This document shows positions 919 through 15,698 of a stretch of DNA of 32,000 bases, in pieces. The position numbers and the translations under genes were made by a program. The DNA is taken from assembly GCF_001482195.1 (NCBI RefSeq), contig NZ_KQ759763.1, forward strand, positions 289,023 through 321,022, written 5' to 3'. The notes under the pieces are model-generated. The model worked only from the letters and a program-made list of their open reading frames with translations, ran no database searches and had not been told where the DNA came from. The stretch comes from Luteimonas abyssi (GTDB lineage Bacteria > Pseudomonadota > Gammaproteobacteria > Xanthomonadales > Xanthomonadaceae). How positions within the stretch are numbered: position 1 is the stretch's first letter; each line of letters begins with the position of its first letter.

Positions 919-1103
919 GGAGGCGTGCACGAAGTGGGGAACGAACACGATAGCCCAGCCTGGCCTCCGCCAGACCGAGCGCACGGTGAACGGGGCGCAG
1001 CGTCCCGAGTTTCAGGCATGCGGTCCCGCGCGGGGAGCCCGTACACTCGGTCGTTCATGTTCGGGCTCGAGATCCGCACCAGCGGCCGCCCGCCTCCATA
1101 CCG

Positions 1104-1856
1104 ATGCCAGGAAGTCGCATGCCCGATTCGCCGTCCGCGCCCGTCGCCTCCGCCCACGCCTCGTCCGCATTCGCCGCGCCTGCCCGGCAGCCTGCCCTGC
1201 GCGTCCGCGATCTCGGCAAGCGGGTGGCCCTGCCCGACAGTGCGCTGACGATTCTCGACGGCATCGGCTTCGACATCGCACAGGGCGAAACCGTCGCCAT
1301 CGTCGGAGCGTCGGGTTCGGGCAAGAGCACGCTGCTGTCGCTGCTGGCCGGGTTGGACCTGCCCTCGTCGGGCGAGATCGAACTCGACGGCACCGCGCTG
1401 TCGGTACTGGACGAAGACGGTCGTGCCCGCGTGCGCGCCGACAAGGTCGGCTTCGTGTTCCAGAACTTCCAGTTGCTGCCGTCGCTGACCGCACTGGAGA
1501 ACGTGATGCTGCCGCTCGAGCTGCGCGGCGACGCCGATGCGCGCGGACCGGCCGAGGCGGAGCTGACCCGGGTCGGGCTGGGCGAGCGCCTGGGGCATTA
1601 CCCGCGCCAGTTGTCCGGTGGCGAGCAGCAGCGCGTCGCCCTGGCGCGCGCCTTCGTGACGCGTCCGTCGCTGCTGTTCGCCGACGAACCCACCGGCAAC
1701 CTCGACACCCGCACCGGGCAATCGGTGATCGAGCTGCTGTTCGCGATGAATGCCGATGCCGGCACCACCCTGGTGCTGGTGACACACGACGACCACCTCG
1801 CCGCGCGCTGCGGCCGCGTGCTGCGCATCGACAGCGGGCGGCTGGTGGACGCATGA
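1104..1856 (+). CDS. ybbA: ABC transporter ATP-binding protein (YbbA/LolD-like)
   Basis: Walker A GASGSGKST, ABC signature LSGGEQQRVALARA, Walker B LLFADEPTGNLD, H-loop VTHD. The start could instead be the ATG at 1119. The stop overlaps the next gene's start (ATGA at 1853-1856). Confidence 0.85.
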   Translation: MPGSRMPDSPSAPVASAHASSAFAAPARQPALRVRDLGKRVALPDSALTILDGIGFDIAQGETVAIVGASGSGKSTLLSLLAGLDLPSSGEIELDGTALSVLDEDGRARVRADKVGFVFQNFQLLPSLTALENVMLPLELRGDADARGPAEAELTRVGLGERLGHYPRQLSGGEQQRVALARAFVTRPSLLFADEPTGNLDTRTGQSVIELLFAMNADAGTTLVLVTHDDHLAARCGRVLRIDSGRLVDA

Positions 1857-4351
1857 GGACCGTACGCCTCGCCTGGACCCAGTTCGCCCGCGACCTCGCC
1901 GCTGGCGAAGTGCGCATCATGCTGGCCGCGCTGGTGCTGGCGGTGCTGGCGGTGAGCGCGGTGGGTTTCGTGACCGACCGTGCCGAGCGTGCGCTGACGC
2001 AGCAGGCCAATCGTCTGCTCGGCGGCGACGCGGTGCTGCGGTCCGATGCCCCCATCGACGCCGCGGTGACCGCCGCGGCCGATGCCGCCGGCCTGCAGCA
2101 CACCGCGACGGTCGAGCTCGACAGCATGATCCGCGTCGGCGACGACCTGCGCCTGGGCGACCTCAGCGCGCTGGGCGAGGGTTACCCGCTGCGCGGAGCG
2201 TTCCGGATCGCCGAGCGTGGCGACGGCGACGATCGCGAAGCGGACGGCATTCCGGCGCCGGGCACGGTCTGGCTCAGCCGCGCGGGTGCCGACACGCTGG
2301 ATGCACGGGTCGGCGACACCGTGTCGCTGGGCGAAGCGCAGTTGCGCCTGGCGGCCCTGGTCACCCAGGAGCCCGACGCCTCGATCGATTACTTCAATGT
2401 CGCGCCCAAGGTCTTCCTCAACGTCGCGGACCTGGAGGCGACCGGGCTGGTGCAGGAAGGCAGCCGGATCCGCTACCGGCTCGTGGTGGCCGGCGACCAG
2501 GATGCCGTGGAGCGTTTCGCCGGCGGTCTGCGCGACGATCTCGGACGTGGCCAGCGGTTGGAAACCATCCAGGATGCGCGGCCGGAAATCCGCTCGGGTC
2601 TCGATCGCGCCGGGCGTTTCCTGGGCCTGGCGGCGCTGGTCTCGGTGGTGCTGGCGGCGGTCGCGGTGGCGATGGCCGCGCGCCGGCACAGCGAACGCCA
2701 TCTGTCCGGCGTCGCGGTGATGCGCTGCCTCGGCGCGAGCCAGCGCACGCTGGTGGGGATCCACGTGGGCGAGCTGGTGCTGCTTGGCCTCCTCGCCAGC
2801 GCGATCGGCGTGGTGCTGGCGTTCGGCCTGCAGTGGGCGGTCGGCGGCTGGATCGCGCGCACGCTCGAACTGGAACTTCCCGGCGCCGGCTGGCTGCCGG
2901 CGCTCGAAGGCCTCGGCGTGGGCATGGTGGTGCTGCTGGCCTTCGGTGCGCCGCCGGTGCTGGCCCTGCGCCGCGTACCGGCATTGCGGGTGATCCGTCG
3001 CGATCTCGACCCGGTGGAGCCGGCGGCGCTCGCGGTCGCCCTGGCCGGGTTCGTCGGCCTGGGCGCCTTGTTGTGGTGGAAGGCCGGCTCGGCCGATCTC
3101 GCCGGCGCCATGCTCGGCGGCATTCTCGCCACGCTGGCGGTCCTGGCGTCGATCGCCTGGGCGTTGATCGCCCTGGTGCGGCGCTTGCGTGGGCGTCTGC
3201 GCGGCGGCCTGCGCTATGGTCTGGCGAATGTGAGTCGGCGCGCTGGGGCCAGCATCGCGCAGGTCTCGGCGCTCGGGCTCGGCCTGATGGCGTTGCTGCT
3301 GCTGACCTTCGTGCGCACCGATCTGCTCGACCGCTGGCAGCTGCAGCTGGCCGAGAATGCGCCCAATCGTTTCATCGTCAATGTGCAACCGCATCAGCTC
3401 GACCCGGTGCGCGTCTTCATGGACGAACGCGGTCTGGAGGCGCCGGAGCTGTTTCCGATGGTCCGCGCGCGCCTGGCTGCACGCAACGGCGAACCGGTGA
3501 CCGGCGAGACCTATGCCGGCGAGGATGAGCAGACCCGCCGCCGCGCCGAGCGCGAGTTCAACCTGTCGATGTCCGGCGATCTGCGCGACGACAACCGTGT
3601 GGTGGACGGGCAGTTCTGGACCGGCACGCCGGCCACGCCGGAGTTCTCGGTGGAGGAGAACTTCGCCAGCCAGCTCGGCTGGCAGGTCGGCGACCGCATC
3701 GTCTTCGACATCGCCGGCCAGCCCTTGGAGGCGCCGATCACCAGCCTGCGCAGCGTGGATTGGGAAAGCTTCCGGCCGAACTTCTTCGTGCTCGCCTCGC
3801 CCGGCGCGCTGGACGGCTACCCGGCCAGCTACATCACCGCGGTGAGCGTGCCGCCGGAGCAGACCCGCTTCACCGCGGATCTGGTCGGCGCGTTCCCGAA
3901 CCTGTCGGTAGTCGATGTCGACGCGGTGCTGGCGCAGGTCCGCACCACGGCCGATCAGGTGTCGGTGGTGGTGCAGGCGGTGTTCTGGTTCTCGCTGGTC
4001 GCGGGCGTGCTGGTGCTGCTGGCGGCGGTGAGCGCCAGCCAGGACGAACGCCTGCTGGAGGGCGGGGTGATGCGCGTGCTCGGCGGCAGCCGCCGGCAAC
4101 TGCGCATGGCCCAGGCCACCGAATTCGCCGCCATCGGCCTGCTGGCCGGCCTTGTCGCGGCCATCGCCGCCTCGGTGCTGTCGGGCGTCATCGCCACCCG
4201 CGTGTTCGACCTGCCCTGGCAGCCGAACTGGAGCATGGCCGCCTTCGGCGGCGTCTTGGGCATGGCGATGACCCTGCTGGCCGGCATGATCGCCACCCGC
4301 CGCGTGGTGGACGCCCCTCCGGCGTTGACGTTGCGGGAGTTGCAGGGCTAG
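1853..4351 (+). CDS. ybbP: ABC transporter permease, FtsX-like, YbbP family (832 aa)
   Basis: Lies in frame inside ORF 785..4351. The real start is taken as ATG 1853 (MRTVRLAWTQFARDL...) because it overlaps the ybbA stop. Two FtsX-type membrane modules separated by large soluble loops; size and pairing with ybbA match E. coli YbbP. Confidence 0.8.
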   Translation: MRTVRLAWTQFARDLAAGEVRIMLAALVLAVLAVSAVGFVTDRAERALTQQANRLLGGDAVLRSDAPIDAAVTAAADAAGLQHTATVELDSMIRVGDDLRLGDLSALGEGYPLRGAFRIAERGDGDDREADGIPAPGTVWLSRAGADTLDARVGDTVSLGEAQLRLAALVTQEPDASIDYFNVAPKVFLNVADLEATGLVQEGSRIRYRLVVAGDQDAVERFAGGLRDDLGRGQRLETIQDARPEIRSGLDRAGRFLGLAALVSVVLAAVAVAMAARRHSERHLSGVAVMRCLGASQRTLVGIHVGELVLLGLLASAIGVVLAFGLQWAVGGWIARTLELELPGAGWLPALEGLGVGMVVLLAFGAPPVLALRRVPALRVIRRDLDPVEPAALAVALAGFVGLGALLWWKAGSADLAGAMLGGILATLAVLASIAWALIALVRRLRGRLRGGLRYGLANVSRRAGASIAQVSALGLGLMALLLLTFVRTDLLDRWQLQLAENAPNRFIVNVQPHQLDPVRVFMDERGLEAPELFPMVRARLAARNGEPVTGETYAGEDEQTRRRAEREFNLSMSGDLRDDNRVVDGQFWTGTPATPEFSVEENFASQLGWQVGDRIVFDIAGQPLEAPITSLRSVDWESFRPNFFVLASPGALDGYPASYITAVSVPPEQTRFTADLVGAFPNLSVVDVDAVLAQVRTTADQVSVVVQAVFWFSLVAGVLVLLAAVSASQDERLLEGGVMRVLGGSRRQLRMAQATEFAAIGLLAGLVAAIAASVLSGVIATRVFDLPWQPNWSMAAFGGVLGMAMTLLAGMIATRRVVDAPPALTLRELQG

Positions 4352-4750
4352 CCACCTGGTGCGGGACGGACGCCCGCCTGCTGGTCGCCCGCTGTCACGA
4401 TCCCGCCCCTGGGCACCCGGCCTGCCCCGTCGGGCCGCCCCGGCCGTCACGTTCTCCGCGCCTGCGGACAGGGCTGGAGAACGATGGCGGTGGCGTTGCA
4501 GCCCTTCCGCTAGGGTCCGCCCTACTGGTCACCAACACCCTGAATACGGATAGTCCGGGCCATCCGCATGCCGCGCCTGGCTGAACGGGCGAGCCGCATC
4601 CCGGGCCCGGTTATCCTCCGCACATCGCGTCAGCGCCCGGGTCGGGAGTCTGCGCCGAGGGCGCGCTTGGGGGAGCGTTGGAGCTGCAGTTCATCCGGCG
4701 GACGATGAGCGATCGATCGTGCGCGGACCGACACAGGGAGTGGTGGTGCG

Positions 4751-7063
4751 ATGAAGCAGGCGAGTGCGTGGGGCGAGTCGACGTCGGAGATGCTGGCCAA
4801 GGTGGCCCGGCTGGGGCAGGACACGCGTCTGATCCGGGCCAGGGCGCCGGTGGAGGACGGCACCTACGTCATCCATCGGGTGCAGGGCAGCGAGGCGCTG
4901 TCGACGCCCTACCGGTTCACCGTCGACATGCTGTCGCTGGATGGTCTGCTGGAGCTCAAGCAGGTCATCGGGCAGCCGATGTGCGTGATCGCGAAGGTCG
5001 AGGATGTGGGCGATCGCGTGTTTCACGGCTACGTGCGGGAGTTCGCGCGCGTCGGCATGGACGGCGGTCTGGCGCGTTATCGGCTCGAGCTGGCGCCGTG
5101 GTTCAGTTTCCTCGACGTCACCAGCAACTGCCGGGTGTTTCAGGACCTCTCGGTGCCGGACATCGTGGGCGAGGTGTTCGAGGCGTACGCGGACCTTGCG
5201 CAATTCCGCTTCGATATCGACAAGACGCGCTATCCGCCGCTCAAGTACTGCGTGCAGTACAACGAATCCGATCTCGCGTTCGTCTCGCGGCTGCTCGAGG
5301 ACGCCGGCATCCACTACAGTTTCGAGCACACCCAGGACGGGCACACGCTGGTGCTCGCCGACGACAGTACCGATTGCGCGCAGATCGACGGCGACGAGCA
5401 GGTGCTCTATCACGCGACCGACGACGACAACCCGCATTACGGTCTGGAAACCTGGGTCGCGCGCCGCCGCATCGGCTCGACGCTGCAGGCGCTGAAGAGC
5501 TTCGACTTCAAGCAGCCGCGTTCGGCATTGTCGGTCGATCAGCCGCTCGACGTGCCCTGCGGCCGCTTCGCGCGGCTGGAGTCGTACCGCTATGAGGGGG
5601 CCGCGCGTTACGGCGACAGCGATGTCGGCCAGGCGCTGGCGGGGTTGCGTGCCGAGGAGACGGCCTGGCAGACCAAGTTGTTCGAAGGCAGCGGCAACCA
5701 TCGCATGCTGCAGCCGGGGCGCTACTTCCTGCTGCGTGGTCACTACGACCATACCGAGACCGACGAGCAGGCGCGTCGCTTTCTGGTGGTGCGCGCCGAT
5801 TACGACATGCGCAACAACATCAGCGACGGACTGGAGGAGGCGGGCGACGTCGCCTATGCCTGCACCGTCACCTGCCTGCGTCGCAAGGTCCCCTATCGCC
5901 CCGTGCGCGCGACGCCACGTCCGCGCATGCCGGGACCGCAGACCGCGACCGTGGTCGGCCCTCCGCACGAGGACATCCATGCCGATCGCTACGGCCGGGT
6001 GAAGGTGCAATTCCCGTGGGATCGGCTGGGGCAGTTCAGCGAGTCCAGTTCGTGCTGGGTGCGCGTGGCCAGCCCCTGGGCGGGCGCCGACATGGGCGGC
6101 GTATCGGTGCCGCGCGTGGGCCAGGAAGTGGTGGTGGATTTCCTCGATGGCGATCCGGACCGCCCGATCATCGTCGGCCGCGTCTACAACGAGGACAACA
6201 TGCCGCCCTTCGGTCTGGAGGTCAGCGGGATCAAATCCAAGACGGTCAACGGCGAGGGGTTCAACGAGCTGACCATGCACGATTCGCCGGGCAAGCAGAT
6301 GCTCAACATGCATGCCCAGCGCGACATGGCGACGACGGTCCAGAACGACCAGACCGCCACCATCAACAACAACAAGAGCACATCCGTCGCCAGCAACCAC
6401 AGCATGAGCGTGGGCGCGAACCAGAACATCGCGGTCGGCGGCACGCGCGGGATCGAGGTGACCGGCGACGACAGCCTCGGGGTGACCGGCGCGCGCACCA
6501 CCAGCATCGCCGGCACCTGCACCACCACGGTCACCGGTGCGACCACCGAAACCCTGCAGGGCGGACGGACGGTCACGGTGGACGTGGGGCATACCGAAAC
6601 CATCAACGGGCCCTACGAAACCTCGGTGGTCGGCGACTTCACCAGCAACCGCACCGGTACCTGGATCGAGACGGTCACCGGCACCTCGACCCGCAATGTC
6701 ACCGGCCTGGTCAGCGAGACGCTGGACGCCGGGCGTACCACCCAGGTCACCGGGGACGACACGCGCGGCGTCAGCGGAAAGGTCGACGACAACAACCAGG
6801 GCGATCGCACCGTGTCGGTAGGCGGCAAGCTCGAACAGGGCGTCGCCACCACGATGGAGGTCTCGTCGGGCGGCGACATGACGATGGGCTCCGGCGGGAC
6901 GATGGCATTGGGCGCGGCCAGCGAGGTGGCGATCGGTGTAGGCGAGTCGTCGGGGATCTCGATCACCGGCGGCGAGATCGTCATCAGCTCCGGTGGTTCG
7001 ACCATCGTGATCGACGCCAGCGGTGTCACGATCAATGGCGCCAAGATCAATCTGAACGCCTGA
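4751..7063 (+). CDS. vgrG: Type VI secretion system spike protein VgrG (canonical, no C-terminal effector extension)
   Basis: 770 aa. N-terminal gp27-like region (YRFTVDMLS, YRLELAPWFSFL, CVQYNESDLAFVSRLLEDAGIHYSFEH). gp5 OB-fold (DRYGRVKVQFPWDR, WVRVASPWAG, PRVGQEVVVDFLDGDPDRPIIVGRVYNEDNMPPF). This is followed by a Thr/Gly-rich beta-helix ending GVTINGAKINLNA. SD-like GGGAG lies upstream of the ATG. Confidence 0.95.
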   Translation: MKQASAWGESTSEMLAKVARLGQDTRLIRARAPVEDGTYVIHRVQGSEALSTPYRFTVDMLSLDGLLELKQVIGQPMCVIAKVEDVGDRVFHGYVREFARVGMDGGLARYRLELAPWFSFLDVTSNCRVFQDLSVPDIVGEVFEAYADLAQFRFDIDKTRYPPLKYCVQYNESDLAFVSRLLEDAGIHYSFEHTQDGHTLVLADDSTDCAQIDGDEQVLYHATDDDNPHYGLETWVARRRIGSTLQALKSFDFKQPRSALSVDQPLDVPCGRFARLESYRYEGAARYGDSDVGQALAGLRAEETAWQTKLFEGSGNHRMLQPGRYFLLRGHYDHTETDEQARRFLVVRADYDMRNNISDGLEEAGDVAYACTVTCLRRKVPYRPVRATPRPRMPGPQTATVVGPPHEDIHADRYGRVKVQFPWDRLGQFSESSSCWVRVASPWAGADMGGVSVPRVGQEVVVDFLDGDPDRPIIVGRVYNEDNMPPFGLEVSGIKSKTVNGEGFNELTMHDSPGKQMLNMHAQRDMATTVQNDQTATINNNKSTSVASNHSMSVGANQNIAVGGTRGIEVTGDDSLGVTGARTTSIAGTCTTTVTGATTETLQGGRTVTVDVGHTETINGPYETSVVGDFTSNRTGTWIETVTGTSTRNVTGLVSETLDAGRTTQVTGDDTRGVSGKVDDNNQGDRTVSVGGKLEQGVATTMEVSSGGDMTMGSGGTMALGAASEVAIGVGESSGISITGGEIVISSGGSTIVIDASGVTINGAKINLNA

Positions 7064-7082
7064 TCGGCGCGGGAGAGCACGC

Positions 7083-8705
7083 ATGGGTGATCCCGTGAGC
7101 CCGGTCGAGAAGCGGATCGACCTGTTGGCGCGGTTGTGGCTGGAGGTGGCGCAGACCCCGGATCTGCGCGTGGTGGTCTGGCGGATTCCTCCGAACGCCG
7201 ATGCCATGCTGGGCGCGTTCTTCGAAGCGCACCGGCAGGCGGACGAGGCGTTGACGCCCGATCTGTTCGTGACCTTCGATACCGCATTCGACACCGGTTT
7301 CGGCTACAGCCGCGCGCTGATCGACGCGTTGTGGGAGGGCTACGCCAACAGCCGCGAGACATTGATCGACCAGGGGGTCGGCATCGGCTGGCGCGGCGCG
7401 CACGAGACCTGGTCCGACTCGGCCAGCGGCGTCGTGGGCATGTTCGCGTCGTTCGCCGATCACCATCGCGCACGGATGCGGTTCTTCGTGCCGGTATTGA
7501 TGCCGTCGCAGGTCCTGGGGGTGGAAGCGTTCGGGCACTGGATCGATCATGCGGTCGGCGCCATCGCGGACGCGCCGATCCGGCTGGCGCTCGTCGATCA
7601 TGCGGACAATCCGCATTGGGACGCCCTGCAGGCGCGGCATCCGGATCACGTCCGGATCGTGGAGGCGCCGATCGACATGTTCGACATCGCCCGCGAGACC
7701 GCCGCGCAGGCCGGCGGCGCGGGCCCCGCGGTCGCCTACCGGCAGATGTTCACCGACGTGCTGGCGGCCACCGAAAAGGGCTCCGCCGCACAGGCGGCCT
7801 CGCGTGCGGACAGGGCCCTGGCGCTGGCGGCGCGGCAGGGGTGGCACGACCAGCAGGCCGCGCTGAACATGACTGTCGCCGGCGCGCACCTGAAGGAGCG
7901 CGACACCGCCAAGGCGATCGCCCGCTATCGCGCCGCGCGCGAGAACGGCGCGCAGGCGCACGCGGCGGGCAACCCGGCCGGCCTGCACCTGGTGATGCAG
8001 GCCTGGTTCGGTGAAGGCGGTGCGTGGTTCCTGGCCGACCAGCCCGAACGTGCGGCCGAGGCCTATCTGGGCGGTGCGGAGGCCGCGCGCAGCGTGCCCA
8101 ACCCGATGTTCGCCCTGGAAGGGCAACGCATGGCCGGCTTCTGCCTGGCGCGCGCGCGTCAGCACGGGCCGGCGCAGGGACACTACCTGCGCGGTCTCCG
8201 CGACGCTCGCGACATGGCCCCCGACGACCGCCCCATGACCACGTTGCCGTTGCTGCTGCAGGACATGCTGCGGCTGGAGGACGCCTCGCGTACCGGCAGG
8301 CTCGAAGCCGTGGCGGAGGGCTACCAGCGCCGTGTCGCCGACGCACAGGCCGAGGCCGAACGCGACGCCTCGCGTCTCGGCCAGCAGCCGGACCCGAAGG
8401 CGATCCGGCGGATCGAGGCACGGATGGAAGATCGCTTCGGGCAGGCGTTCGATGCATCGCGCCAGGAGCGCGAGCGCCTGATCGCCGGTGGCAACGAAAT
8501 GTTCCGCAAGATCGTATCCGTCGGGCGCGACTATCTGCACGACGGCTGGAACGGGCTGCCCGACATCAAGCATCCGCTCGATGCCGAGCCGGCCACCTGG
8601 GAGGCATTGCCGGAGTACGCGCAGTTGCCGGATGCGGCCTCCCTCGAAGACGACGGCGCCGGGACGGCCGCCGCGGAGCCCATCGCCATGGAGAAGACGG
8701 CATGA
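7083..8705 (+). CDS. Uncharacterised 540-aa soluble protein, alpha-helical/TPR-like middle region; candidate T6SS adaptor/chaperone for the downstream Rhs effector
   Basis: Starts 19 nt after the vgrG stop, with SD GGGAGAG 5 nt upstream of the ATG. Its stop overlaps the Rhs start (ATGA at 8702-8705). GC3-rich codon usage in this frame. No signal peptide or TM segment seen. Ala-rich helical repeats at about aa 230-400 and an acidic C-terminal tail. I do not recognise DUF4123, DUF2169 or DUF1795 signatures. Confidence 0.75.
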   Translation: MGDPVSPVEKRIDLLARLWLEVAQTPDLRVVVWRIPPNADAMLGAFFEAHRQADEALTPDLFVTFDTAFDTGFGYSRALIDALWEGYANSRETLIDQGVGIGWRGAHETWSDSASGVVGMFASFADHHRARMRFFVPVLMPSQVLGVEAFGHWIDHAVGAIADAPIRLALVDHADNPHWDALQARHPDHVRIVEAPIDMFDIARETAAQAGGAGPAVAYRQMFTDVLAATEKGSAAQAASRADRALALAARQGWHDQQAALNMTVAGAHLKERDTAKAIARYRAARENGAQAHAAGNPAGLHLVMQAWFGEGGAWFLADQPERAAEAYLGGAEAARSVPNPMFALEGQRMAGFCLARARQHGPAQGHYLRGLRDARDMAPDDRPMTTLPLLLQDMLRLEDASRTGRLEAVAEGYQRRVADAQAEAERDASRLGQQPDPKAIRRIEARMEDRFGQAFDASRQERERLIAGGNEMFRKIVSVGRDYLHDGWNGLPDIKHPLDAEPATWEALPEYAQLPDAASLEDDGAGTAAAEPIAMEKTA

Positions 8706-9080
8706 CGGTCGCCGCCAAGCATTTCGATCCCCAGTTGGGGATCGACATCCACATGTACGTGTTTCCGCCGTTACCGCTGCCGATTCCATTGCCGACGCCA
8801 CACATCGGCATCGTCATGGATCCGTTCGACTACATCCCGGTGATCGGCGCCAAGACCCACGTCAACGGCGTCAAGCGCGCGTCGGCGGCCAGCATGGGGC
8901 TGGACATCCACATCCCGCTGGGCCTCTTCCATCCGGCCTTCGCGCCCAAATTGCCCACGGGGCCGCATTTCGACGACGAGATCTTCATGGGCAGCAAGAC
9001 GGTGGCGGCCGACGGCCTGCCGTTCTCGCGGCTGACGATGCCGGTGCTCAGCTGTCAGGCGTTCGGGATGATCGCCCCCG
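8702..9080 (+). other. PAAR-like domain of the Rhs effector (extended class with Pro-rich loops)
   Basis: AAKHFDP...DIH aligns with AARxGDxxxH. GAKTHVNGVKRASAAS and GSKTVAADGLPFSRLTMPVLSC align with GSxxVxINGxPAARxGDxxxC. The Pro-rich PPLPLPIPLPTPHIG loop resembles extended PAAR proteins as I remember them. Needs HMM confirmation. Confidence 0.65.
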
Positions 9081-12000
9081 TGCGACCGAACAAGCCGAAG
9101 CCGAAGAAGCTGTCGCTGGTGCTGCCGACCACGCTCAACGTGGCGATCCCGAACAATGTCGTCGTCGGCGGGCCACCCACGGTATCGCTGCTCGCGGTGT
9201 TGATGCGGGGAGGATTCGCCCTCCTGGGCAAGCTCAACCGGACGTTCCGGCTCACCCAGCGTGCGGGTGCGGCGTTCCGGCGGTTCCGGCAGCACGCGTT
9301 CCGCAACATGAAGCCGGGCAACCTCAAGTGCAACGTCCTGCGTGCCGAGCCGGTCGATATCCGCGACGGCAGCGTCTCGGTGGTGCACGAGGACTTCGTG
9401 GTGCCCGGACGCCTGCCACTGACGTGGACGCGCGAATACGCTTCGGGCGATCGGTACGAGGGTGCATGCGGGCACGGCTGGCAGAGCCCGGCCGATGTCA
9501 GGCTGGAGTTCGACGCGGCGGATGACGTCGTCTTGCTGCACGGTCTGGGCGGCGTCAGCGTGTTTCCCGAGCGCCCCGGCGCGCCCGAAGACGGCGACGT
9601 GGTCGAGCCCATCGACGGCGCCCGTCTGGAACTCCACCGTGGCGCGGCCGGCGACGAATGGCGGGTGCGGACCAAGGACGGCCTGATCCAGTGCTTCATC
9701 GCGGCGCCGGCCGGTGTCGCCGCCATCGGCCCGCGGGTGCTGCAGATCGCACGCATCGAGGATCGCTGCGGCAATCACTGGCGGTTCGAGCGCAAGGACG
9801 GGCACCTGGTCCGCATCGTCGAAAGCGGTAGCACGGATGCGGACGGCACGCCGTTGCAGGGGCGTTACATCGAGGTGGACGCCCGCCACGGCCGCATCGA
9901 AGGTCTGCGGTTGTTCGATCCGCAGAGCGGTCTGCACCATCCGCTCGTACGCTATCGCTACGACGCCGCGGGCGACCTGGTCGCCGCCATCGACCCGCTC
10001 GGCGCCGAGCGCACGTTCGAGTATGTGCAGCACCGCATGGTCCGGCACACCGACCGCCTGGGGCTGTCCTTCAGCTACGCCTACAACGCGCGTTGGCAGG
10101 TCGTCCACGCCTGGGGCGATCATGGTCTCTACGACTATCGCTTCCGCTACGACGATGTGCTGAACGACGTCGAGATCACCGATTCTCTCGGCCACGTCTC
10201 GATCGTCAAGTTCGACGCGTACCGCCTGCCCCTGTGCGAGATCGATCCGCTCGATGGCGTGACGGTCTTCGAGTACGACGACTACGGGCGAACCACCGCC
10301 ATCGTCGACCCGATGGGCCTGCGCACCGAGTTCGCCTACGATGCGCGTGGCAACCAGACCCGTCTGGTCCAGCCCGACGGCACCGCCGTGGTCAGCGAGT
10401 ACGACGCCGACGACAACCTCGTGACGGTGACCGACCCGGGTGGCCATGCCTGGCGCCAGCACAGCGATGCGCGCGGGCTGTTGCGCGAGCAGGTCGATCC
10501 GCTCGGCGCGACGACGCGCTACGACTACGACGCCCATGGGCAGTTGATCGTGCATGCGAGCGCCCGTGGGGCGATCACCCGGATCCAGTACGACCGGCAC
10601 GGGCAATTGGCGGGTGTGATCGATCCGATGGGCCATTCCAGCCGGTTCGACCACGACGCGCTGGGCCGGCTGCTGCAACAGCATGATCCGCTCGACCAGG
10701 TGACGACCTACAGCTACGACGCCAAGGGCCGGCTGCTGGACGTGCGTTCGCCGGGCGGCGGGCAGGTGCGTTGCGAATACGACGCGGAGGATCAACTGAT
10801 CCGCTATGTGGACGAGGCCGGCGCACAGACCCGGTTGCAGTACGTGGGCATCGGCCAGATCGCCAAGCGGATCCAGCCGGACGGGCATACGGTGGAGTAC
10901 CACTACGACACCGAAGAGCAGCTGGTCGGACTGACCAATCAGCGCGGCGAACGTCACGAACTCAAGCGCGATGCGCTGGGACGCATCGTCGAGGAAGTGG
11001 ACTATTGGGGCCAGGCGCGTCGCTACGAGTACGACGCCGCAGGCCGCTTGCGCGCCACTATCGACCCGCTCGGACAGCGGATCGGCTTCGACACCGATCC
11101 GCTGGGTCGCATCGTCCGCAAGCGGTTACCGGATCTGCGGCAGCCGGGTCGGCAGGTGACCGAGGGCTTCAAGTACGACGCGCTCGGGCAACTGGTCGAA
11201 CTGCGCAATCCCAGCCGGCATGCCGTGCGCCGGTTCGATCCCGCCGGACGCCTGGTCGAAGAGGTTCAGGACGGCTTTGCGGTGACATGCGGGTACGACG
11301 CCGACGGCAACCGCACGCTGCGCGAGACCGGCGCGGGCCATCGGGTCGCGTGCACCTACGACCTGCGCGGGCAGGTGATCGAGATCGGCATCGACGACGA
11401 AGCGCCGATCCGTATCGAGCGGGACGCGCTCGGTCGTGCCACCCACGAACAGCTTGGCGAGCACGTCCAGCGTCGCTTCGACTACGACGCGCGCAACCTG
11501 CTGACCGCGCAGCGCGTCCTGCGCGATGTCGCGCCGCTGTTCGACACCGCCTACGGCTACGACACCGCCGGCAACCTCACCCGGCGCGCCGACAGCCAGC
11601 AGGGCACCGACGAATACCGCTACGACATCCTCGGCCGGCTGCTGCAGCACACCGATCCGAAATCGCGCGTGGAACGCTTCTTCAACGATCCGGCCGGCGA
11701 CCGCCTGCAGACCCGAATCCACGAGGTGAAGCTGCGCAAGGTGGTGGGCGGCGAGGACGAGGATCAGGTCCAGTGGACGCGCGAGGGCACCTACGAGGGC
11801 GTGCATTACGTGTTCGACCGCGCCGGCGACCTGATCCGCAAGGGCCGCCCCGGCGGCCCGGATGCCGGCGATCTGGACCTGGTCTGGGACGCCAACCATC
11901 GCCTGGCCGAGAGTCGCCGCGGCGGCCAGACCACCACCTACGGTTACGACCCGCTGGGCCGGCGCGTGTTCAAGCGCAATCCCACCCACACCACGTGGTT

Positions 12001-13393
12001 CTACTGGGACGGCGACGCCCTGCTGGGCGAAGTGAAGCAGGCCAACGACGACCCCGAGGCCGCGCCGCTGTGGGTCGGCAACGTGGCCGATCTGGCGGGG
12101 GCTCGCAAGCGGCGGGACCGGTTGAAGGCGTTGCATGCGCGCACGCGGGAGTACGTGTACTACCCGGGGACCTTCGTGCCGTTGGCGTTGATCGATCCCC
12201 CTGTCGCCATGGGCACGTCGAGTCAGAACATCGCCGTAGATGATGCGCAGAAGCCGCATTCGGGCCCCGTCGGATCGGCGTCCTCGCGGGACCTGCCTGG
12301 AGCGGCGCCGCAAGCCACGGCTGGACGGGGCGTGCCAGCCGATCCCGGCACCTCCGGGCTGGGCCTGCCGGGGGGACTGCACCTGCGGGCATCCGCACAG
12401 CACGTCGCCCTAGGGGATCGCCCAGCGTCGGGCCTTGTCCTGGGCGGGGCGGGGGCGGTGTTGGGGGCGGGCCGCGTGTTGGACGGGGGACGTGGGAAAG
12501 AGACCGTGCTGGGCGGCGATGTCGCTCCCGGGGCCGGCATCCCACGGCCTGGGAACGGCGGTCGCGAGGTCGAGGCGGTGGCGGGTCCTGCGGGTCGGCG
12601 CAAGGACGTTCCGGCGCTCCCCCGTCCGCGGCCGGGCGCAACCGAAGACGCCCAGTCGAACACAACGAACCGCGTGTTTCATTTTCATGTGGATCCCAAT
12701 GGATGCCCTTTCCGATTGAGCGGCTCGTCCGGGCAGATCGTATGGTCGGGCACCTTGACCGCCTGGGGCCTCATGGCCGATGCGGGCGGGAGCAGTATCG
12801 ACAATCCGCTCCGATTCCAGGGGCAGTACTTCGACGAAGAAACGGGACTGTCCTACAACAGATATCGATACTACGACCCCCACACGGGACAGTACGTGGG
12901 ACGCGATCCCATCGGTCTGCTGGGTGGCATGAATCCGTACCAGTACGGTCCCAACGGGCAGCAGTGGATCGACCCGCTCGGTCTGGCCAAGGCGAAGATC
13001 GACCCGGCCACCGGCGTTCACAGGATGCCGCCCTGGATGCCGGGCATGCGTGGCTGGGAGAGGCAACATCTCGTGCCCTTCGCGGTCTGGCGCGACTTCA
13101 TGCCGCAGTTGACGCAACTGGGTCTGACCATGGCGGATGTCAACGGTGCACACAACATGATGTACATGCCGCGATTCGCGTCCGCGAGGCCGGCGCAGTA
13201 TCCCAACATGGGCTTGCATCGCGGCTTCCATCCGATGCATACCGCATACAATCAGCGCGTCGCCCGCGAACTCCGCCAACTCATGGCCGGCCTTCAGGGC
13301 AGGAGCTCCTCCGAGGCGAGGGCGGCATTCAGGCAGTTCCAGTTCAGTCTCAGACAGAGAACCCGGACGGGTCGGGTTACGTGCGCGAGGTAG
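8702..13393 (+). CDS. PAAR-domain Rhs-family polymorphic toxin (T6SS effector), 1563 aa
   Basis: In frame inside ORF 8024..13393. The start is taken at ATG 8702 (SD GGAG 8 nt upstream; overlaps the upstream stop). N-terminal PAAR-like domain. DUF6531-like segment (RAEPVDIRDGSVSVVHEDFVVPGRLPLTWTREYAS...GHGWQSP). Dozens of YD repeats (YDAAGDLVAAIDPLG, YDARGNQTRLVQPDG, YDAHGQL, YDAKGRLL...). Rhs core end motif (NPLRFQGQYFDEETGLSYNRYRYYDPHTGQYVGRDPIGL ... QQWIDPLGL), followed by a 135-aa C-terminal extension. Confidence 0.95.
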   Translation: MTVAAKHFDPQLGIDIHMYVFPPLPLPIPLPTPHIGIVMDPFDYIPVIGAKTHVNGVKRASAASMGLDIHIPLGLFHPAFAPKLPTGPHFDDEIFMGSKTVAADGLPFSRLTMPVLSCQAFGMIAPVRPNKPKPKKLSLVLPTTLNVAIPNNVVVGGPPTVSLLAVLMRGGFALLGKLNRTFRLTQRAGAAFRRFRQHAFRNMKPGNLKCNVLRAEPVDIRDGSVSVVHEDFVVPGRLPLTWTREYASGDRYEGACGHGWQSPADVRLEFDAADDVVLLHGLGGVSVFPERPGAPEDGDVVEPIDGARLELHRGAAGDEWRVRTKDGLIQCFIAAPAGVAAIGPRVLQIARIEDRCGNHWRFERKDGHLVRIVESGSTDADGTPLQGRYIEVDARHGRIEGLRLFDPQSGLHHPLVRYRYDAAGDLVAAIDPLGAERTFEYVQHRMVRHTDRLGLSFSYAYNARWQVVHAWGDHGLYDYRFRYDDVLNDVEITDSLGHVSIVKFDAYRLPLCEIDPLDGVTVFEYDDYGRTTAIVDPMGLRTEFAYDARGNQTRLVQPDGTAVVSEYDADDNLVTVTDPGGHAWRQHSDARGLLREQVDPLGATTRYDYDAHGQLIVHASARGAITRIQYDRHGQLAGVIDPMGHSSRFDHDALGRLLQQHDPLDQVTTYSYDAKGRLLDVRSPGGGQVRCEYDAEDQLIRYVDEAGAQTRLQYVGIGQIAKRIQPDGHTVEYHYDTEEQLVGLTNQRGERHELKRDALGRIVEEVDYWGQARRYEYDAAGRLRATIDPLGQRIGFDTDPLGRIVRKRLPDLRQPGRQVTEGFKYDALGQLVELRNPSRHAVRRFDPAGRLVEEVQDGFAVTCGYDADGNRTLRETGAGHRVACTYDLRGQVIEIGIDDEAPIRIERDALGRATHEQLGEHVQRRFDYDARNLLTAQRVLRDVAPLFDTAYGYDTAGNLTRRADSQQGTDEYRYDILGRLLQHTDPKSRVERFFNDPAGDRLQTRIHEVKLRKVVGGEDEDQVQWTREGTYEGVHYVFDRAGDLIRKGRPGGPDAGDLDLVWDANHRLAESRRGGQTTTYGYDPLGRRVFKRNPTHTTWFYWDGDALLGEVKQANDDPEAAPLWVGNVADLAGARKRRDRLKALHARTREYVYYPGTFVPLALIDPPVAMGTSSQNIAVDDAQKPHSGPVGSASSRDLPGAAPQATAGRGVPADPGTSGLGLPGGLHLRASAQHVALGDRPASGLVLGGAGAVLGAGRVLDGGRGKETVLGGDVAPGAGIPRPGNGGREVEAVAGPAGRRKDVPALPRPRPGATEDAQSNTTNRVFHFHVDPNGCPFRLSGSSGQIVWSGTLTAWGLMADAGGSSIDNPLRFQGQYFDEETGLSYNRYRYYDPHTGQYVGRDPIGLLGGMNPYQYGPNGQQWIDPLGLAKAKIDPATGVHRMPPWMPGMRGWERQHLVPFAVWRDFMPQLTQLGLTMADVNGAHNMMYMPRFASARPAQYPNMGLHRGFHPMHTAYNQRVARELRQLMAGLQGRSSSEARAAFRQFQFSLRQRTRTGRVTCAR
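12197..12673 (+). other. ~159-aa Gly/Ala/Pro-rich low-complexity insertion within the Rhs core domain
   Basis: Lies between the conserved YYPGTFVPLALID and VFHFHVDPNGCPFRLSG...VWSGTLTAWG core elements. In Rhs proteins I know, these are separated by only a short loop. The reading frame stays open throughout. Confidence 0.7.
12986..13390 (+). other. Rhs C-terminal toxin domain, putative HNH/EndoVII-fold nuclease of the AHH-like clade
   Basis: Begins right after DPLGL (nt 12971-12985). Pattern ERQHLVP...DVNGAHNMMYMP...GLHRGFHPMHTAYNQRVARELRQL matches the AHH-family layout (AHH-[LI][IV]P ... N..N...LP ... H.G.H..Y...V). The AHH triad reads RQH here (His1456). Confidence 0.5.
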
Positions 13394-13400
13394 CACATTG

Positions 13401-13937
13401 ATGGCCGAAGGATGTTTCCAACTCTTGAGTCCGAGCCGGTTCGGTGATTTCTCGATCGCAATGCGAGGAGAGGACGAATACGGGACCGGGTACTTCGTCG
13501 ACGGAGTCACCGAGGCGATCGAGATCGCCCGCGTGGATGTCGACGTGGATGTGAGCATCCAGGCCTTCCGCAAGGCTGCGCCGGATTACTTGCAGACGAC
13601 GAAGGGAGTGCCTCTTGTCTCACAGGCGTTCAGAGACGAGGCGCTTGTCCACTTTGCGAACGACATCGACGTCGTCGAGGCGCAGTTGCATCTTAATGGA
13701 GGGACTGTCGATTTCTTCGCGCTGCGGTTGAAGGCATTGGCGCTGATCGACGTCGATAGGTCGCTGTTCTCGGACATCGGTGGTATCCGGATACTGACCG
13801 ATCCCGTGTTCGATCCATCAGTGCCGGACTTCTATCTGGCCCGCGACGAGGCGTTCAGGGACTTCATCGTTGCGTCCGGTGCGCTGGTCGCGCTGATCGT
13901 CGATAAAAAACTGCGAGTGGAGTACATGCAGTATTGA
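13401..13937 (+). CDS. Putative cognate immunity protein for the Rhs C-terminal toxin (178 aa, cytoplasmic, acidic)
   Basis: ATG at 13401, 7 nt after the Rhs stop. The track begins the ORF at TTG 13398 and lists it as 179 aa. GAGG lies 10 nt upstream of the ATG. Same strand as the toxin, no signal peptide or TM segment. Clearly more A/T-ending codons than the flanking genes (gat aaa aaa ctg cga; ctt aat gga). Family not recognised. Confidence 0.6.
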   Translation: MAEGCFQLLSPSRFGDFSIAMRGEDEYGTGYFVDGVTEAIEIARVDVDVDVSIQAFRKAAPDYLQTTKGVPLVSQAFRDEALVHFANDIDVVEAQLHLNGGTVDFFALRLKALALIDVDRSLFSDIGGIRILTDPVFDPSVPDFYLARDEAFRDFIVASGALVALIVDKKLRVEYMQY

Positions 13938-14065
13938 GGCCGTATCGAGGCCGTCGACTGGCACGGGCTGTCATGCATTGAGAGACCGGCGCACCTCCAC
14001 TGTTTTCCGGATCCAAGCGAAGGCAGTCGCCGGCCGCACGCCCACCTGCCCCACTCGTGCTGTAC

Positions 14066-14089
14066 GGAGCGGGTCGGCAGACCCGCTCC
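14066..14089. terminator. 10-bp GC-rich hairpin between convergent genes (possible bidirectional terminator at the island's right boundary)
   Basis: ggagcgggtc-ggca-gacccgctcc. It lies 129 nt after the immunity gene stop and 29 nt after the stop of the minus-strand 86-aa gene. No clear T-tract. Confidence 0.4.
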
Positions 14090-14117
14090 GCCAGTCAGCG
14101 CCCCTCCAGCCGAACGT

Positions 14118-14378
14118 CTAATCGTCGGCGGTACTTTCCTCGGCGTTGAACCGGCGCGCATACGCGCGCTCTTCACTGATGCGAGCGACTTCAGCGTCCG
14201 GCAGTTCCGGCGCACCATAGACGGCGTAGGCGATCTCGCCATCCTGGTGGCCCAGGCGGCGCAGCCGGTAGCGGGTCGCGCCGGAGCCGGTATCGGGCGG
14301 GTAATGGACCGGCGGGGTGTCGCCTTCCAGATCGACCTCGCCATTGTCGACGGGGCCTCCGACGAAGAGTGCGCGCAT
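14118..14378 (-). CDS. Small hypothetical protein (86 aa)
   Basis: C-terminal part of ORF 14118..15242. The rest of that ORF is antisense to the methyltransferase gene, so only MRALFVGGPVDNGEVDLEGD...EESTADD (ATG at 14378) is plausible. GC3-rich. No family recognised. Confidence 0.45.
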   Translation of the reverse strand: MRALFVGGPVDNGEVDLEGDTPPVHYPPDTGSGATRYRLRRLGHQDGEIAYAVYGAPELPDAEVARISEERAYARRFNAEESTADD

Positions 14379-14663
14379 GTGGGATGTCCTGTGCGGAAGA
14401 GATGCTCGCAGGGTGGCGGTCCGGATGTTCGGTGTCGATGAAATCGGCATGAGCGATGCGTACATTGCGCTTGCGGTCACGACCGTAGCGGTGGGGGCGG
14501 TGGCTTGAGCGGCGGGCCGAAGGGGCGGGCAGGACAGCGATCGCGTGGTGGCGACGCGACACGCTGGCGCCTGGATGAACGCACGCGTCGCGACGCCGAC
14601 ATCATTCGGCGCCCGCTGGGCGGGTTCCGTAGAATCCGCAGTCCGCCCGCCTCGTGAACCGCC

Positions 14664-15698
14664 GTGTCCGATCCTGCGCTCGATGCCTTGATGTTGCCCT
14701 TCGCCGAAGCGCGCCTGGCGCGCGTGCCCGGCGCGCTGTTTCTCGGCGCGCGGGCCGGCGTCGCCCTGCATGCATCGCAATGGCCCGGCCTGGTGTGCGT
14801 GCAGGGATTCAGGCCGCAGGCGCAGGCGCTCGAGCGCGACGGGTTCGCTGTGCGCGACGACATCGATGCGTTGGCCGGCGATGCGGGCTGGCCGCTGGTG
14901 CTGGTGGTGCCGCCGCGGCAACGCGAAGCCGCGCGTGCCCTGTATGCGCAGGCGTTGGCCCTGGCGGCGCCGGATGCGATGGTCGTGTCGGCGGTGCCGA
15001 ACGAGGAAGGCGCGAAGTCGGCGGAAGCCGACTTCGTGCGGATCGCGGGTCCTGCTGGGTCGTTGTCGAAGCACAAATGCCGGGTGTTCTGGGCGCGGGC
15101 TGGTGCCGGCGGCGACGCTACGCTCGCCGCCGCCTGGCGCGAGGGCGACGCGATCCGCGAGGTCGCGTCCGGCTGGTGGAGCCGGCCCGGCGTGTTCGCC
15201 TGGGACCGGATCGACATCGCGTCGGCGTTGTTGATCGAGCATCTGCCGGACACGCTCGCCGGCGACGGCGCCGATCTCGGCGCGGGGACCGGCGTGCTGG
15301 CGGCTGCGGTCCTACGGCGCTGCCCCCAGGTCCGTACCCTCGACCTGTACGAGGCCGACGCGCGTGCGCTGGCACTGGCCGGGCGCAACCTCGCGGCCCT
15401 GGGGACGAAGGCGTCCGTAGGGCTGCGCTGGCACGACGTCGGCGGTGGCCTGCCGCGGCGCTACGACTTCATCGTCACCAATCCGCCGTTCCACGCGCAG
15501 GGGCGTGCCTCCCGGCCCGAGCTGGGGCAGGCGTTCCTGCGCACGGCCGCCGCGGCGTTGCGTCCCGGCGGCGCGCTGTGGCTGGTGGCCAATCGGCAGT
15601 TGCCCTACGAACAGACGCTGGGTGAGGGCTTCGCGGAGGTGCGCACGGTGGCGCAACGCGACGGATTCAAGATCATCGCCGCGAGGCGTGCCGCATGA
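14664..15698 (+). CDS. rsmC: Class I SAM-dependent rRNA methyltransferase, RsmC-like (16S rRNA m2G)
   Basis: 344 aa with a GTG start. SAM-binding motif DLGAGTGVLA and catalytic TNPPFH motif. Two-domain size as in E. coli RsmC. TAGAAT -10-like hexamer about 30 nt upstream. Stop overlaps the rsuA start (ATGA). Confidence 0.7.
   Translation: MSDPALDALMLPFAEARLARVPGALFLGARAGVALHASQWPGLVCVQGFRPQAQALERDGFAVRDDIDALAGDAGWPLVLVVPPRQREAARALYAQALALAAPDAMVVSAVPNEEGAKSAEADFVRIAGPAGSLSKHKCRVFWARAGAGGDATLAAAWREGDAIREVASGWWSRPGVFAWDRIDIASALLIEHLPDTLAGDGADLGAGTGVLAAAVLRRCPQVRTLDLYEADARALALAGRNLAALGTKASVGLRWHDVGGGLPRRYDFIVTNPPFHAQGRASRPELGQAFLRTAAAALRPGGALWLVANRQLPYEQTLGEGFAEVRTVAQRDGFKIIAARRAA

Follow-up and report, generated by a model that had tools for sequence, protein, structure and literature searches.

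What readies a polymorphic Rhs toxin for delivery by a type VI secretion system (T6SS), when the protein encoded in the expected adaptor slot matches none of the families by which such adaptors are recognised? This question is raised by a 32,000-nucleotide (nt) stretch of Luteimonas abyssi DNA (contig NZ_KQ759763.1, positions 289,023 to 321,022; henceforth the window), in which a gene for a protein of 540 amino acids (aa) is located between vgrG, encoding the T6SS spike protein, and the gene of an Rhs effector (Table 1). An identical protein is recorded from L. abyssi under the annotation "hypothetical protein". An earlier annotation made from the letters alone, referred to here as the sequence-only reading, had placed this open reading frame (ORF) directly after vgrG with an overlap onto the effector start, and the placement was correct: 19 nt separate the vgrG stop codon from the start of the 540-aa gene, whose own TGA (8703–8705) overlaps the Rhs ATG at 8702 as ATGA, with a GGAGAAG motif shortly 5′. 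By this arrangement the two genes are translationally coupled. The analysis described below indicates that the 540-aa protein is probably a dedicated cytoplasmic chaperone or adaptor for one class of T6SS Rhs effectors; its family sits immediately 5′ of Rhs genes that share a PAAR-like domain, a basic linker and DUF6531, in Gammaproteobacteria, Betaproteobacteria and more distant lineages.

Gene neighbourhood of the family

Homologous loci, whose survey the sequence-only reading had suggested, were collected for the 540-aa subfamily from one genome per GTDB species, giving 65 loci from Lysobacter, Xanthomonas, Stenotrophomonas, Rhodanobacter, Collimonas, Paraburkholderia, Pantoea, Kosakonia, Erwinia, Serratia and other genera. 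The gene proved to be strongly linked to both of its neighbours: a vgrG homologue ends just 5′ of it in all loci with upstream sequence (62/62), and the next large gene encodes an Rhs protein in all loci with downstream sequence (63/63), the first 230 residues of which are homologous to those of the window Rhs at 48–70% identity. The AHH toxin domain and the immunity candidate of the window were found by tblastn in none of these 65 loci. Because synteny is kept while toxin and immunity vary, the gene is considered a conserved delivery part of the cassette, not its exchangeable toxin/immunity part. An immunity or antitoxin role was likewise rejected, the gene being kept while toxin and immunity gene are replaced in every related locus.

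The wider family includes a short subfamily of about 430 aa, of which 31 loci were examined, 30 of them with downstream sequence. A PAAR-like Rhs N-domain is encoded directly 3′ in 29 of these 30, whereas vgrG is found directly 5′ in only about 12 of the 22 loci with enough upstream sequence; where no vgrG adjoins, a gene for an FHA protein, a gene for a DUF1573 protein or a divergently oriented vgrG is located upstream, and two-gene modules made up of the family gene and rhs exist without an adjacent vgrG. Since the link to Rhs persists where the adjacent vgrG is lost, the constant partner of the family is taken to be the N-terminal module of the Rhs class and not VgrG. The proposal in the sequence-only reading that the protein loads PAAR-Rhs onto VgrG thereby keeps its basis in linkage to both genes, with the emphasis moved from the spike to the Rhs N-domain.

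Of six loci reached by a converse search from the Rhs N-domain, five (Yersinia pseudotuberculosis, Caballeronia, Cystobacter fuscus, a metagenome-assembled genome (MAG) of Fibrobacteres and one metagenome contig) have an intact or frameshifted family gene immediately 5′, and the sixth, on a metagenome contig, is an orphan Rhs array that keeps a 3′ remnant of the family gene. The ATGA overlap between the family gene and the next gene is shared by the window and two further loci (L067 and L099).

Several rearranged forms of the module were noted in the course of this survey. In L102 (5684–7035 and 10472–11782), an array of Rhs fragments, a PAAR-like/DUF6531 piece follows the last ~95 codons of a family gene, which looks like a recombination break inside that gene. 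A predicted metagenome protein of 1,812 aa (P0186) carries a family module (residues 14–410), a Gly/Ala-rich linker and a PAAR-like Rhs (..AV-MLASKHFDLVLGVDIH..) in one chain; it could be a true fusion, or it could stem from a stop codon that was lost or from an error of gene calling or sequencing. Tandem duplication of the module, or at least of Rhs, is seen in L059 (28–4784 and 8001–11068, with a second family gene and Rhs 5′ of the first), L001 (9805 and 16517) and L040 (9781 and 14518). On the Burkholderia ubonensis plasmid pRF23 (L103, 4766–13093), tssI, a gene for a 421-aa hypothetical protein, an RHS gene and a gene for a small hypothetical protein follow one another directly 3′ of a phage-integrase-family gene; because pRF23 is conjugative and carries the whole cassette, the module is regarded as mobile. 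A 2.48-Mb Variovorax record in a plasmid collection carries the cassette as well, and the family gene is labelled "hypothetical protein" in both the B. ubonensis and the Variovorax records. Two loci are filed under Gram-positive names, L034 as Bacillus subtilis SK7B5 and L061 as Vagococcus sp. WN89Y, and all three of their proteins resemble those of the window at Stenotrophomonas-like and Kosakonia/Enterobacter-like identity, respectively; the assemblies are probably contaminated.

Most loci (26 of 27 examined) contain a further ORF of 41–43 codons between the 540-aa gene and rhs, for example L021 9608–9739, L049 9548–9676 and L002 9614–9742. Its start overlaps the upstream stop codon, and its product consists of a single hydrophobic helix and, after it, E-[AV]-[RK]-x-F-L-R-A-L-x-R-A-[LIF]. 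This microprotein is gene 310 of Stenotrophomonas rhizophila (41 aa), listed there as "unknown". It is missing in the window, in the Collimonas loci (gaps of 13–22 nt), in L011 of Paraherbaspirillum (17 nt) and in L054. A search of the window for a copy elsewhere gave none, the best tblastn match (E 0.067) being at chance level, and a relocated copy was rejected on this ground.

N-terminal module of the Rhs effector

Rhs residues 1–160 always co-occur with the 540-aa family and are part of an N-terminus that is even better conserved than the family itself, with a mean column identity of 66% vs 53% in the respective alignments. The sequence-only reading had called the effector a PAAR-Rhs protein; the Rhs half of this label stands, and the PAAR half is weakly supported by sequence. 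The window Rhs has no Pfam PAAR match, PAAR_motif (PF05488) is matched in one of 20 Rhs N-domain homologues (E 0.033), and among PDB entries the N-domain profile scores best with 4jiv_D, a PAAR protein (E 0.34). This alignment falls on the PAAR motif G-S-x-T-V-x-x-D-G-x-P-A-A-R, the end of which is P-F-S-R in the window Rhs, giving GSxTVxxDGxP(F/A)(S/A)R overall. Some sources name homologues of this N-domain PAAR or Zn-binding T6SS proteins. The indications that the domain is PAAR-like are weak but consistent.

As had also been noted from the sequence, the effector lacks a transmembrane architecture: no transmembrane segment was found in Rhs residues 1–300, where the highest Kyte-Doolittle mean over 19 residues is 1.49 vs the usual 1.6 on this crude scale. 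Because the Rhs protein has no transmembrane helix, an Eag-type client is excluded. The same 300 residues have an isoelectric point (pI) of 9.0 vs 5.3 for the 540-aa protein, and the basic linker at residues 161–215 may be a ligand of the acidic 540-aa protein and its TPR (tetratricopeptide repeat) region. The DUF6531 domain that follows is described as the N-terminal plug of the Rhs cage or cocoon (PMC13515810). On the side of the spike, the C-terminus of VgrG is a Gly/Ser/Val/Ile-rich repeat of beta-helix type (...GVTINGAKINLNA); judging from the Pfam scan and the residues themselves, it appears to bear no C-terminal extension, as no Pfam domain maps there.

Family membership and predicted fold

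Searches of Pfam and NCBIfam with the 540-aa protein gave nothing at E ≤ 0.1 (best E 0.16), and a search of all PDB chain sequences gave nothing at E ≤ 10. In agreement with the sequence-only reading, which saw no hallmarks of the known adaptors, DUF4123 (PF13503), DUF2169 (PF09937) and DUF1795 (PF08786) have no match at E ≤ 1 in 34 family members including the window protein; a comparison by hhalign of the family profile with S. rhizophila Tap1 and Tap3, both of which are DUF4123 proteins, gave probabilities of 0.4% and 0.1%. The TPR region is matched in relatives, by TPR_2 in 20 and TPR_12 in 19 of the 34 members (best E 8e-7) and by TPR_MalT in the short (~430-aa) relatives; the window protein itself has no TPR profile match at E ≤ 1, and the alpha/beta N-domain has no Pfam family in any of the 34. 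The close homologues number 76 (32–58% identity), and a profile search of 1.84 billion representatives of clusters at 50% identity returned 1,096 at E ≤ 1e-3, of which 411 reach E ≤ 1e-30; the 1,096 are mostly proteins of ~430 aa that align to profile positions 1–400 and lack the C-terminal hairpin described below. Members are annotated in the records examined as "hypothetical protein" or "tetratricopeptide repeat protein", and a search of complete Escherichia coli genomes by blastn in distant mode, using an Enterobacter homologue as query, gave nothing. By these comparisons, the 540-aa protein belongs to a large family for which no model of the whole was found in Pfam or NCBIfam. The profile searches thus point to no known adaptor or enzyme family, and the sole enzyme-like trait is the STAND/AAA+ fold without a P-loop that is predicted for the N-domain.

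The protein has a predicted mass of 58.9 kDa, an acidic pI of 5.3, an alanine content of 18.5% and no predicted transmembrane segment. A full-length AlphaFold2 model, built with a 34-sequence alignment, has a mean predicted local distance difference test (pLDDT) of 88.8 and a predicted template modelling score (pTM) of 0.79, and falls into four parts. It bears out the TPR-like solenoid anticipated by the sequence-only reading, whose layout of an N-terminal region, Ala-rich TPR-like helices and an acidic tail is refined to residues 1–212, 215–400 and 485–540, with a helical hairpin (401–484) added. The hairpin is specific to the ~540-aa subfamily, since the ~430-aa relatives match profile positions 1–400 only. 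The most conserved motif of the family, E346-G-Q-R-M-A-G-F-C354, is located within the TPR-like region; the alignment invariants W489-x-G-x-P...H497-P-x-D...W506...P510 form a conserved C-terminal motif, and the tail from 485 to 540 holds 12 D/E vs 2 K/R.

A Foldseek comparison of the full-length model with the PDB gave, among the 50 matches listed, mostly generic helical-repeat proteins of TPR type (Rap, LGN and SNAP, E ~1e-4), with MalT at rank 10 and a few ORC/STAND chains among the lower matches. Because TPR-type matches dominated this result, the N-domain was modelled alone (pLDDT 91.4, pTM 0.87), and its best match was MalT (8bob_C, E 2.7e-4), followed by ORC2/3, Cdc6 and CED-4, at template-modelling scores (TM-scores) of 0.4–0.54. 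In the model, the N-domain shows the alpha/beta nucleotide-binding-domain fold expected of STAND/AAA+ proteins. The loop between beta1 and alpha1 is just 2–3 residues long (P36-P37), where a P-loop would need eight, and strand 3 ends in V-P-V-L-M-P with an invariant P141 and no acidic Walker B residue. A scan of residues 1–250 in each of 228 family proteins gave no match to the Walker A pattern [AG]xxxxGK[ST], and a role as an active nucleoside triphosphatase (NTPase) was rejected on this basis. The N-domain is best described, on the strength of the model, as a predicted degenerate STAND/AAA+-like fold that would not act as an NTPase; its resemblance to MalT and other STAND proteins may be due to remote common ancestry or to convergence. 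The Pfam scan of the 540-aa protein gave neither a winged-helix nor a DNA-binding domain.

Relation to Tap6 and earlier literature

A homologue of the window protein has been named in S. rhizophila CFBP13503, the vgrG6 cluster of which is described in the order vgrG6, tap6, then gene 310 and lastly paar-rhs-tse6 in two 2026 reports (PMC13340143; bioRxiv 10.64898/2026.07.13.738213). The window protein and Tap6 (WP_181406191.1) share 44% identity over 384 aa (E 1e-104). In PMC13340143, Tap6 is listed as a "hypothetical protein" and "effector adaptor" detected in the cell proteome (Table 1 of that paper), and an AlphaFold3 prediction of Tap6 with PAAR-Rhs has an interface predicted template modelling score (ipTM) of 0.82, the threshold of its authors being 0.75 (Table S4 of that paper). 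A contact with the PAAR domain is proposed in bioRxiv 10.64898/2026.07.13.738213. As far as the accessible parts of these two reports (PMC13340143; bioRxiv 10.64898/2026.07.13.738213) go, the adaptor label derives from position and structure prediction only; they contain no fold description, family definition or experiment on Tap6, and they report the cluster from 163 of 193 T6SS-positive Stenotrophomonas genomes. The name Tap6 covers two unrelated proteins, namely the DUF4123 adaptor of VgrG6 in Pseudomonas aeruginosa PA14 and the pseudo-NTPase/TPR protein of S. rhizophila.

An older trace of the family is a figure legend of 2011 (PMC3150448), in which a conserved gene of Y. pseudotuberculosis, placed between vgrG and rhs, is marked "TPR"; the locus of this species examined here has a 439-aa family member in that slot. 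A review of T6SS in Xanthomonadales, in its available portion, mentions a "TPR-repeat protein" only among orphan neighbours and is silent on this gene. Tvp accessory proteins were considered as relatives and rejected, being DUF2169-based and unrelated (PMC13373197). The sequence-only reading had further cited TecT as an adaptor of TPR type, in which it was mistaken, as TecT and co-TecT form a split DUF4123 protein (PMC11582642).

Where the sequence-only reading spoke of an undescribed adaptor family, the adaptor part is favoured by the synteny and by the ipTM of 0.82 for Tap6, and the word undescribed does not wholly apply in view of the 2026 Tap6 papers and the "TPR" gene of 2011. The protein is not categorically new, being a T6SS accessory protein in the expected slot whose homologue has been labelled an adaptor since mid-2026. 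What is new is a large family without a Pfam or NCBIfam family model and structurally unrelated to the three canonical adaptor families, its predicted pseudo-STAND plus TPR architecture, and its specific, reciprocal tie to one PAAR-like Rhs class.

Proposed function and alternative explanations

The chaperone or adaptor role, which we consider probable, would operate as follows. In the cytoplasm of the producer, the 540-aa protein would bind the N-terminal PAAR-like/linker region of newly made Rhs, most likely through its TPR groove and acidic surfaces; binding would hold this region in a soluble, competent state up to the moment at which the cognate VgrG trimer receives the PAAR-like cone on its blunt beta-helix tip, after which the 540-aa protein would be released and left behind without being secreted itself. 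Such a mode would resemble that of DUF2169/TvpA and of the Eag chaperones of PAAR-bearing effectors, and would be less like that of the DUF4123 tethers, because DUF4123 docks on the C-terminal helix-turn-helix of VgrG. In favour of this role are the synteny (62/62 and 63/63 in the subfamily, 29/30 in the wider family), the converse loci, the P0186 fusion, the ATGA coupling, the predicted structure with its TPR-like and STAND-like parts, the charge complementarity of the partners (pI 5.3 vs 9.0), the ipTM of 0.82 and the proposed PAAR contact of the homologue Tap6, and the beta-helix end of VgrG.

Several points weigh against it. No experiment on a family member, be it a deletion, a pull-down or an assay of secretion, was found in the literature; the ipTM of 0.82 belongs to the homologue Tap6, and the interface is not described in the accessible part of its source; gene order indicates linkage, not mechanism; and the Rhs N-domain is called PAAR-like on weak sequence evidence (E 0.34 and 0.033). 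The proposed role leaves the conserved pseudo-NTPase domain, the hairpin and the W-x-G-x-P...H-P-x-D motif without explanation, and the same is true of the membrane microprotein, which most loci carry and the window lacks. Finally, in one relative, the sole such case (L087, 7998–10643), a gene for a 407-aa CBM_4_9 protein lies 3′ instead of rhs; a gene for a 732-aa protein without a Pfam match is located on the upstream side of this locus.

A more far-reaching version of the chaperone reading is possible and can be put forward only tentatively. It would make the family a fourth, structurally independent class of T6SS chaperone, built from a MalT-like STAND NTPase that has lost nucleotide binding, as the obligate partner of a PAAR-like Rhs class found in Gamma- and Betaproteobacteria, Myxococcota and Fibrobacteres-type MAGs, including the vgrG-free two-gene modules and a conjugative plasmid; the pseudo-NTPase, the hairpin and, in most lineages, the coupled 41-aa microprotein would then form a loading and release device with no counterpart in DUF4123, DUF2169 or Eag proteins.

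Alternatively, the protein could be a tether in the manner of DUF4123, one part binding VgrG and another the Rhs cage, so that the effector hangs beside the spike without relying on a PAAR-like tip. The vgrG that adjoins the gene throughout the 540-aa subfamily (62 of 62 loci) agrees with such a role, as do the several modules of the protein (alpha/beta, TPR solenoid, and hairpin plus conserved C-terminal motif), the confinement of the C-terminal extension to the subfamily whose sampled loci all have vgrG adjacent, and the precedent of the DUF4123 adaptor Tap14, which binds the Rhs cage and VgrG simultaneously (PMC11582642). We nevertheless regard a tether as unlikely, in that, among loci of the wider family with enough upstream sequence, about half lack a nearby vgrG while the Rhs N-domain is kept in 29 of 30, short-form members without the C-terminal extension adjoin vgrG in 12 loci, it is with the N-terminal module of Rhs that the family co-occurs, no C-terminal extension such as DUF4123 docks on is annotated in the VgrG, and no DUF4123 homology was detected (34 members; hhalign 0.4% and 0.1%). 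A folding factor for the Rhs cage or plug, which would keep hold of DUF6531 and the linker up to the completion of toxin enclosure and autoproteolysis and would have no direct role in spike loading, is quite improbable. It would account for the co-occurrence of the family with the whole PAAR-like, linker and DUF6531 module, for the position of DUF6531 as the plug of the Rhs cocoon (PMC13515810), for the translational coupling and for the two-gene modules without adjacent vgrG; set against these, most DUF6531-Rhs proteins in the cited literature pair with Eag, with DUF4123 or with nothing, and the S. rhizophila authors put the predicted contact on the PAAR domain.

The fold raises a further alternative, that of a STAND-like switch comparable to MalT and Rap, in which the TPR region senses a ligand and controls T6SS firing or expression of the island. 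MalT is the best structural match of the N-domain, with ORC subunits, Cdc6 and CED-4 also at the top, TPR_MalT is matched in short relatives, and the top matches of the full-length model are Rap regulators; yet TM-scores are modest (0.27–0.54), Walker A is present in 0 of 228 proteins with only 2–3 residues at the P-loop position, no DNA-binding or other output domain is seen, and the gene is coupled to rhs inside an effector operon and moves with it onto plasmids and into orphan modules, all of which makes a switch very unlikely. Some T6SS cargo genes are located between vgrG and PAAR genes, and the place of the 540-aa gene in the effector operon, together with the disordered acidic tail of its product, might suggest a secreted passenger of the spike or a co-effector that enters the target cell with VgrG and Rhs. 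Such a passenger seems extremely improbable, as the Pfam and NCBIfam scans revealed no toxin-like or enzymatic domain, no cognate immunity gene adjoins the 540-aa gene, the 540-aa protein is conserved while the toxin varies, and S. rhizophila Tap6 comes from a whole-cell proteome, with no report of its secretion found in the accessible parts of the two papers.

Features of the locus

The features of the locus are collected in Table 1. The annotated start of the 540-aa protein is considered correct because its N-terminus is in register with those of 33 homologues in the alignment.

Table 1. Features of the vgrG–rhs locus in window coordinates; residue ranges refer to the protein named in the row.
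Feature	Position	Strand	Basis
vgrG, spike protein, 770 aa	4751..7063	+	Pfam Phage_GPD 5e-88, Gp5_trimer_C, Phage_base_V; TIGR03361 4e-168
Shine-Dalgarno-like GGGAGAG, 8 nt 5′ of the ATG of the 540-aa gene	7068..7074	+	sequence reading
540-aa gene under study, homologue of S. rhizophila Tap6	7083..8705	+	ORF, homologues, model
540-aa protein, residues 1–212, predicted alpha/beta domain with five strands, STAND/AAA+-like nucleotide-binding-domain fold without P-loop	7083..7718	+	domain model, Foldseek
540-aa protein, residues 215–400, ten predicted helices forming about five TPR-like pairs	7725..8282	+	model, Foldseek, TPR profile matches in relatives
540-aa protein, residues 401–484, predicted helical hairpin with long helices 401–430, 438–468 and 472–484	8283..8534	+	model
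540-aa protein, residues 485–540, conserved motif in low-confidence structure, then disordered acidic tail	8535..8702	+	alignment, pLDDT 29–83
ATGA overlap of 540-aa gene stop and Rhs gene start	8702..8705	+	sequence reading
Rhs effector gene, 1563 aa	8702..13393	+	RHS_repeat 2e-75, DUF6531, RHS, Rhs_assc_core, AHH (Pfam/NCBIfam)
Rhs residues 1–160, divergent PAAR-like domain (MTVAAKHFDPQLGIDIH...; ...MGSKTVAADGLPFSRL...)	8702..9181	+	alignment, profile search
Rhs residues 161–215, short hydrophobic stretch and very basic linker (KLNRTFRLTQRAGAAFRRFRQHAFRNMK)	9182..9346	+	sequence
Rhs residues 216–281, DUF6531	9347..9544	+	Pfam 8.8e-16
Rhs residues 1353–1428, Rhs-associated core, DPxGL-type cleavage region GRDPIGLLGG	12758..12985	+	TIGR03696 2.4e-23
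Rhs residues 1442–1538, AHH (HNH/EndoVII) nuclease toxin domain	13025..13315	+	Pfam AHH 5.7e-6
Candidate immunity gene, 178 aa from ATG, pI ~4.4	13401..13937	+	position only

The candidate immunity protein has no family match and is not kept in related loci. Its gene is located in a low-GC stretch: the guanine-plus-cytosine (GC) content is 0.61 at window positions 13001–14000, which cover the toxin domain and the immunity candidate, vs ~0.69 in the flanks. This dip fits a horizontal exchange of the toxin/immunity end, and the S. rhizophila authors describe the same pattern in their own cluster. The remaining genes of the window are housekeeping genes (an FtsX-type permease, a HAD hydrolase, ArsR, pyruvate dehydrogenase E2/E3-like proteins and OmpW), on account of which the locus is regarded as an orphan vgrG island and not as a main T6SS cluster. 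Promoter and terminator scans of positions 4200–15400 gave counts not above those of shuffled sequence. An ORF of 1,188 codons at 785–4351 has its sole Pfam match in a C-terminal FtsX permease domain (residues 1066–1178), and its long N-terminal part may be an over-extended call in sequence of 70% GC.

Significance

T6SS effectors are usually sought beside three adaptor markers, DUF4123, DUF2169 and DUF1795. The 540-aa family is at least as easily recognisable, with more than 1,000 clusters at 50% identity, and only its TPR region is partly matched by Pfam; a family profile would flag polymorphic Rhs toxins of a whole class, in plant-associated genera and in clinical ones, among them Xanthomonas, Stenotrophomonas, Lysobacter, Collimonas, Pantoea, Kosakonia, Yersinia and Burkholderia. 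If the proposed role is true, it would show how a divergent PAAR-like Rhs is kept ready for loading, which has so far been known only for effectors that depend on Eag or DUF2169 proteins. That a dead NTPase fold of STAND type had been turned into the scaffold of a chaperone would also be interesting from an evolutionary point of view.

Comparison with known systems

Proteins of the MalT type, which combine a STAND nucleotide-binding domain with TPRs, resemble the 540-aa protein in that MalT 8bob_C is the best match of its N-domain and TPR_MalT is matched in its relatives; unlike them, the 540-aa family has no Walker A, no P-loop and no Pfam winged-helix, and the TM-scores to such proteins go no higher than 0.46–0.54. 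The DUF1795 chaperones of the Eag family (EagR, EagT6) are encoded just 5′ of their clients and act on the N-termini of PAAR-bearing effectors, including many Rhs proteins; however, they are reported to shield the transmembrane helices of prePAAR effectors, whereas the Rhs here has no transmembrane segment and the 540-aa protein has no PF08786 match. The structures of EagT6 and SciW, which we take to be present in the PDB, are absent among the 50 matches listed for the full-length model.

Adaptors of the DUF4123 family (Tap-1/Tec, Tap14 and the split TecT/co-TecT) are similarly encoded between vgrG and the effector. They are required to load cognate effectors, including the Rhs protein RhsP2, onto VgrG, and they dock on the VgrG C-terminal helix-turn-helix and on the Rhs cage (PMC11582642). 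The 540-aa protein differs in having no sequence relation to them, in the lack of an annotated extension on the window VgrG and in its partner, which is here the Rhs N-terminal module. The mode proposed for it is that of the DUF2169 proteins (TvpA, TecG and the Atu3641 type), which stabilise a DUF4150/PAAR-like protein before it reaches VgrG (PMC13373197); in contrast to these, the 540-aa protein has no PF09937 match and a predicted pseudo-NTPase plus TPR architecture, and its client would be another PAAR-like domain, fused to Rhs.

The closest counterpart is S. rhizophila Tap6, a true homologue of similar size (59.5 kDa) that occupies the same slot between a VgrG of ~750 aa and an Rhs protein starting with (V/M)xxAAKHFDPQLGIDIH. 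The S. rhizophila operon differs from the window in carrying gene 310 (41 aa) between tap6 and rhs, and the order of vgrG, tap6 and PAAR-like rhs is kept in all 65 species loci wherever the contig shows the neighbours.

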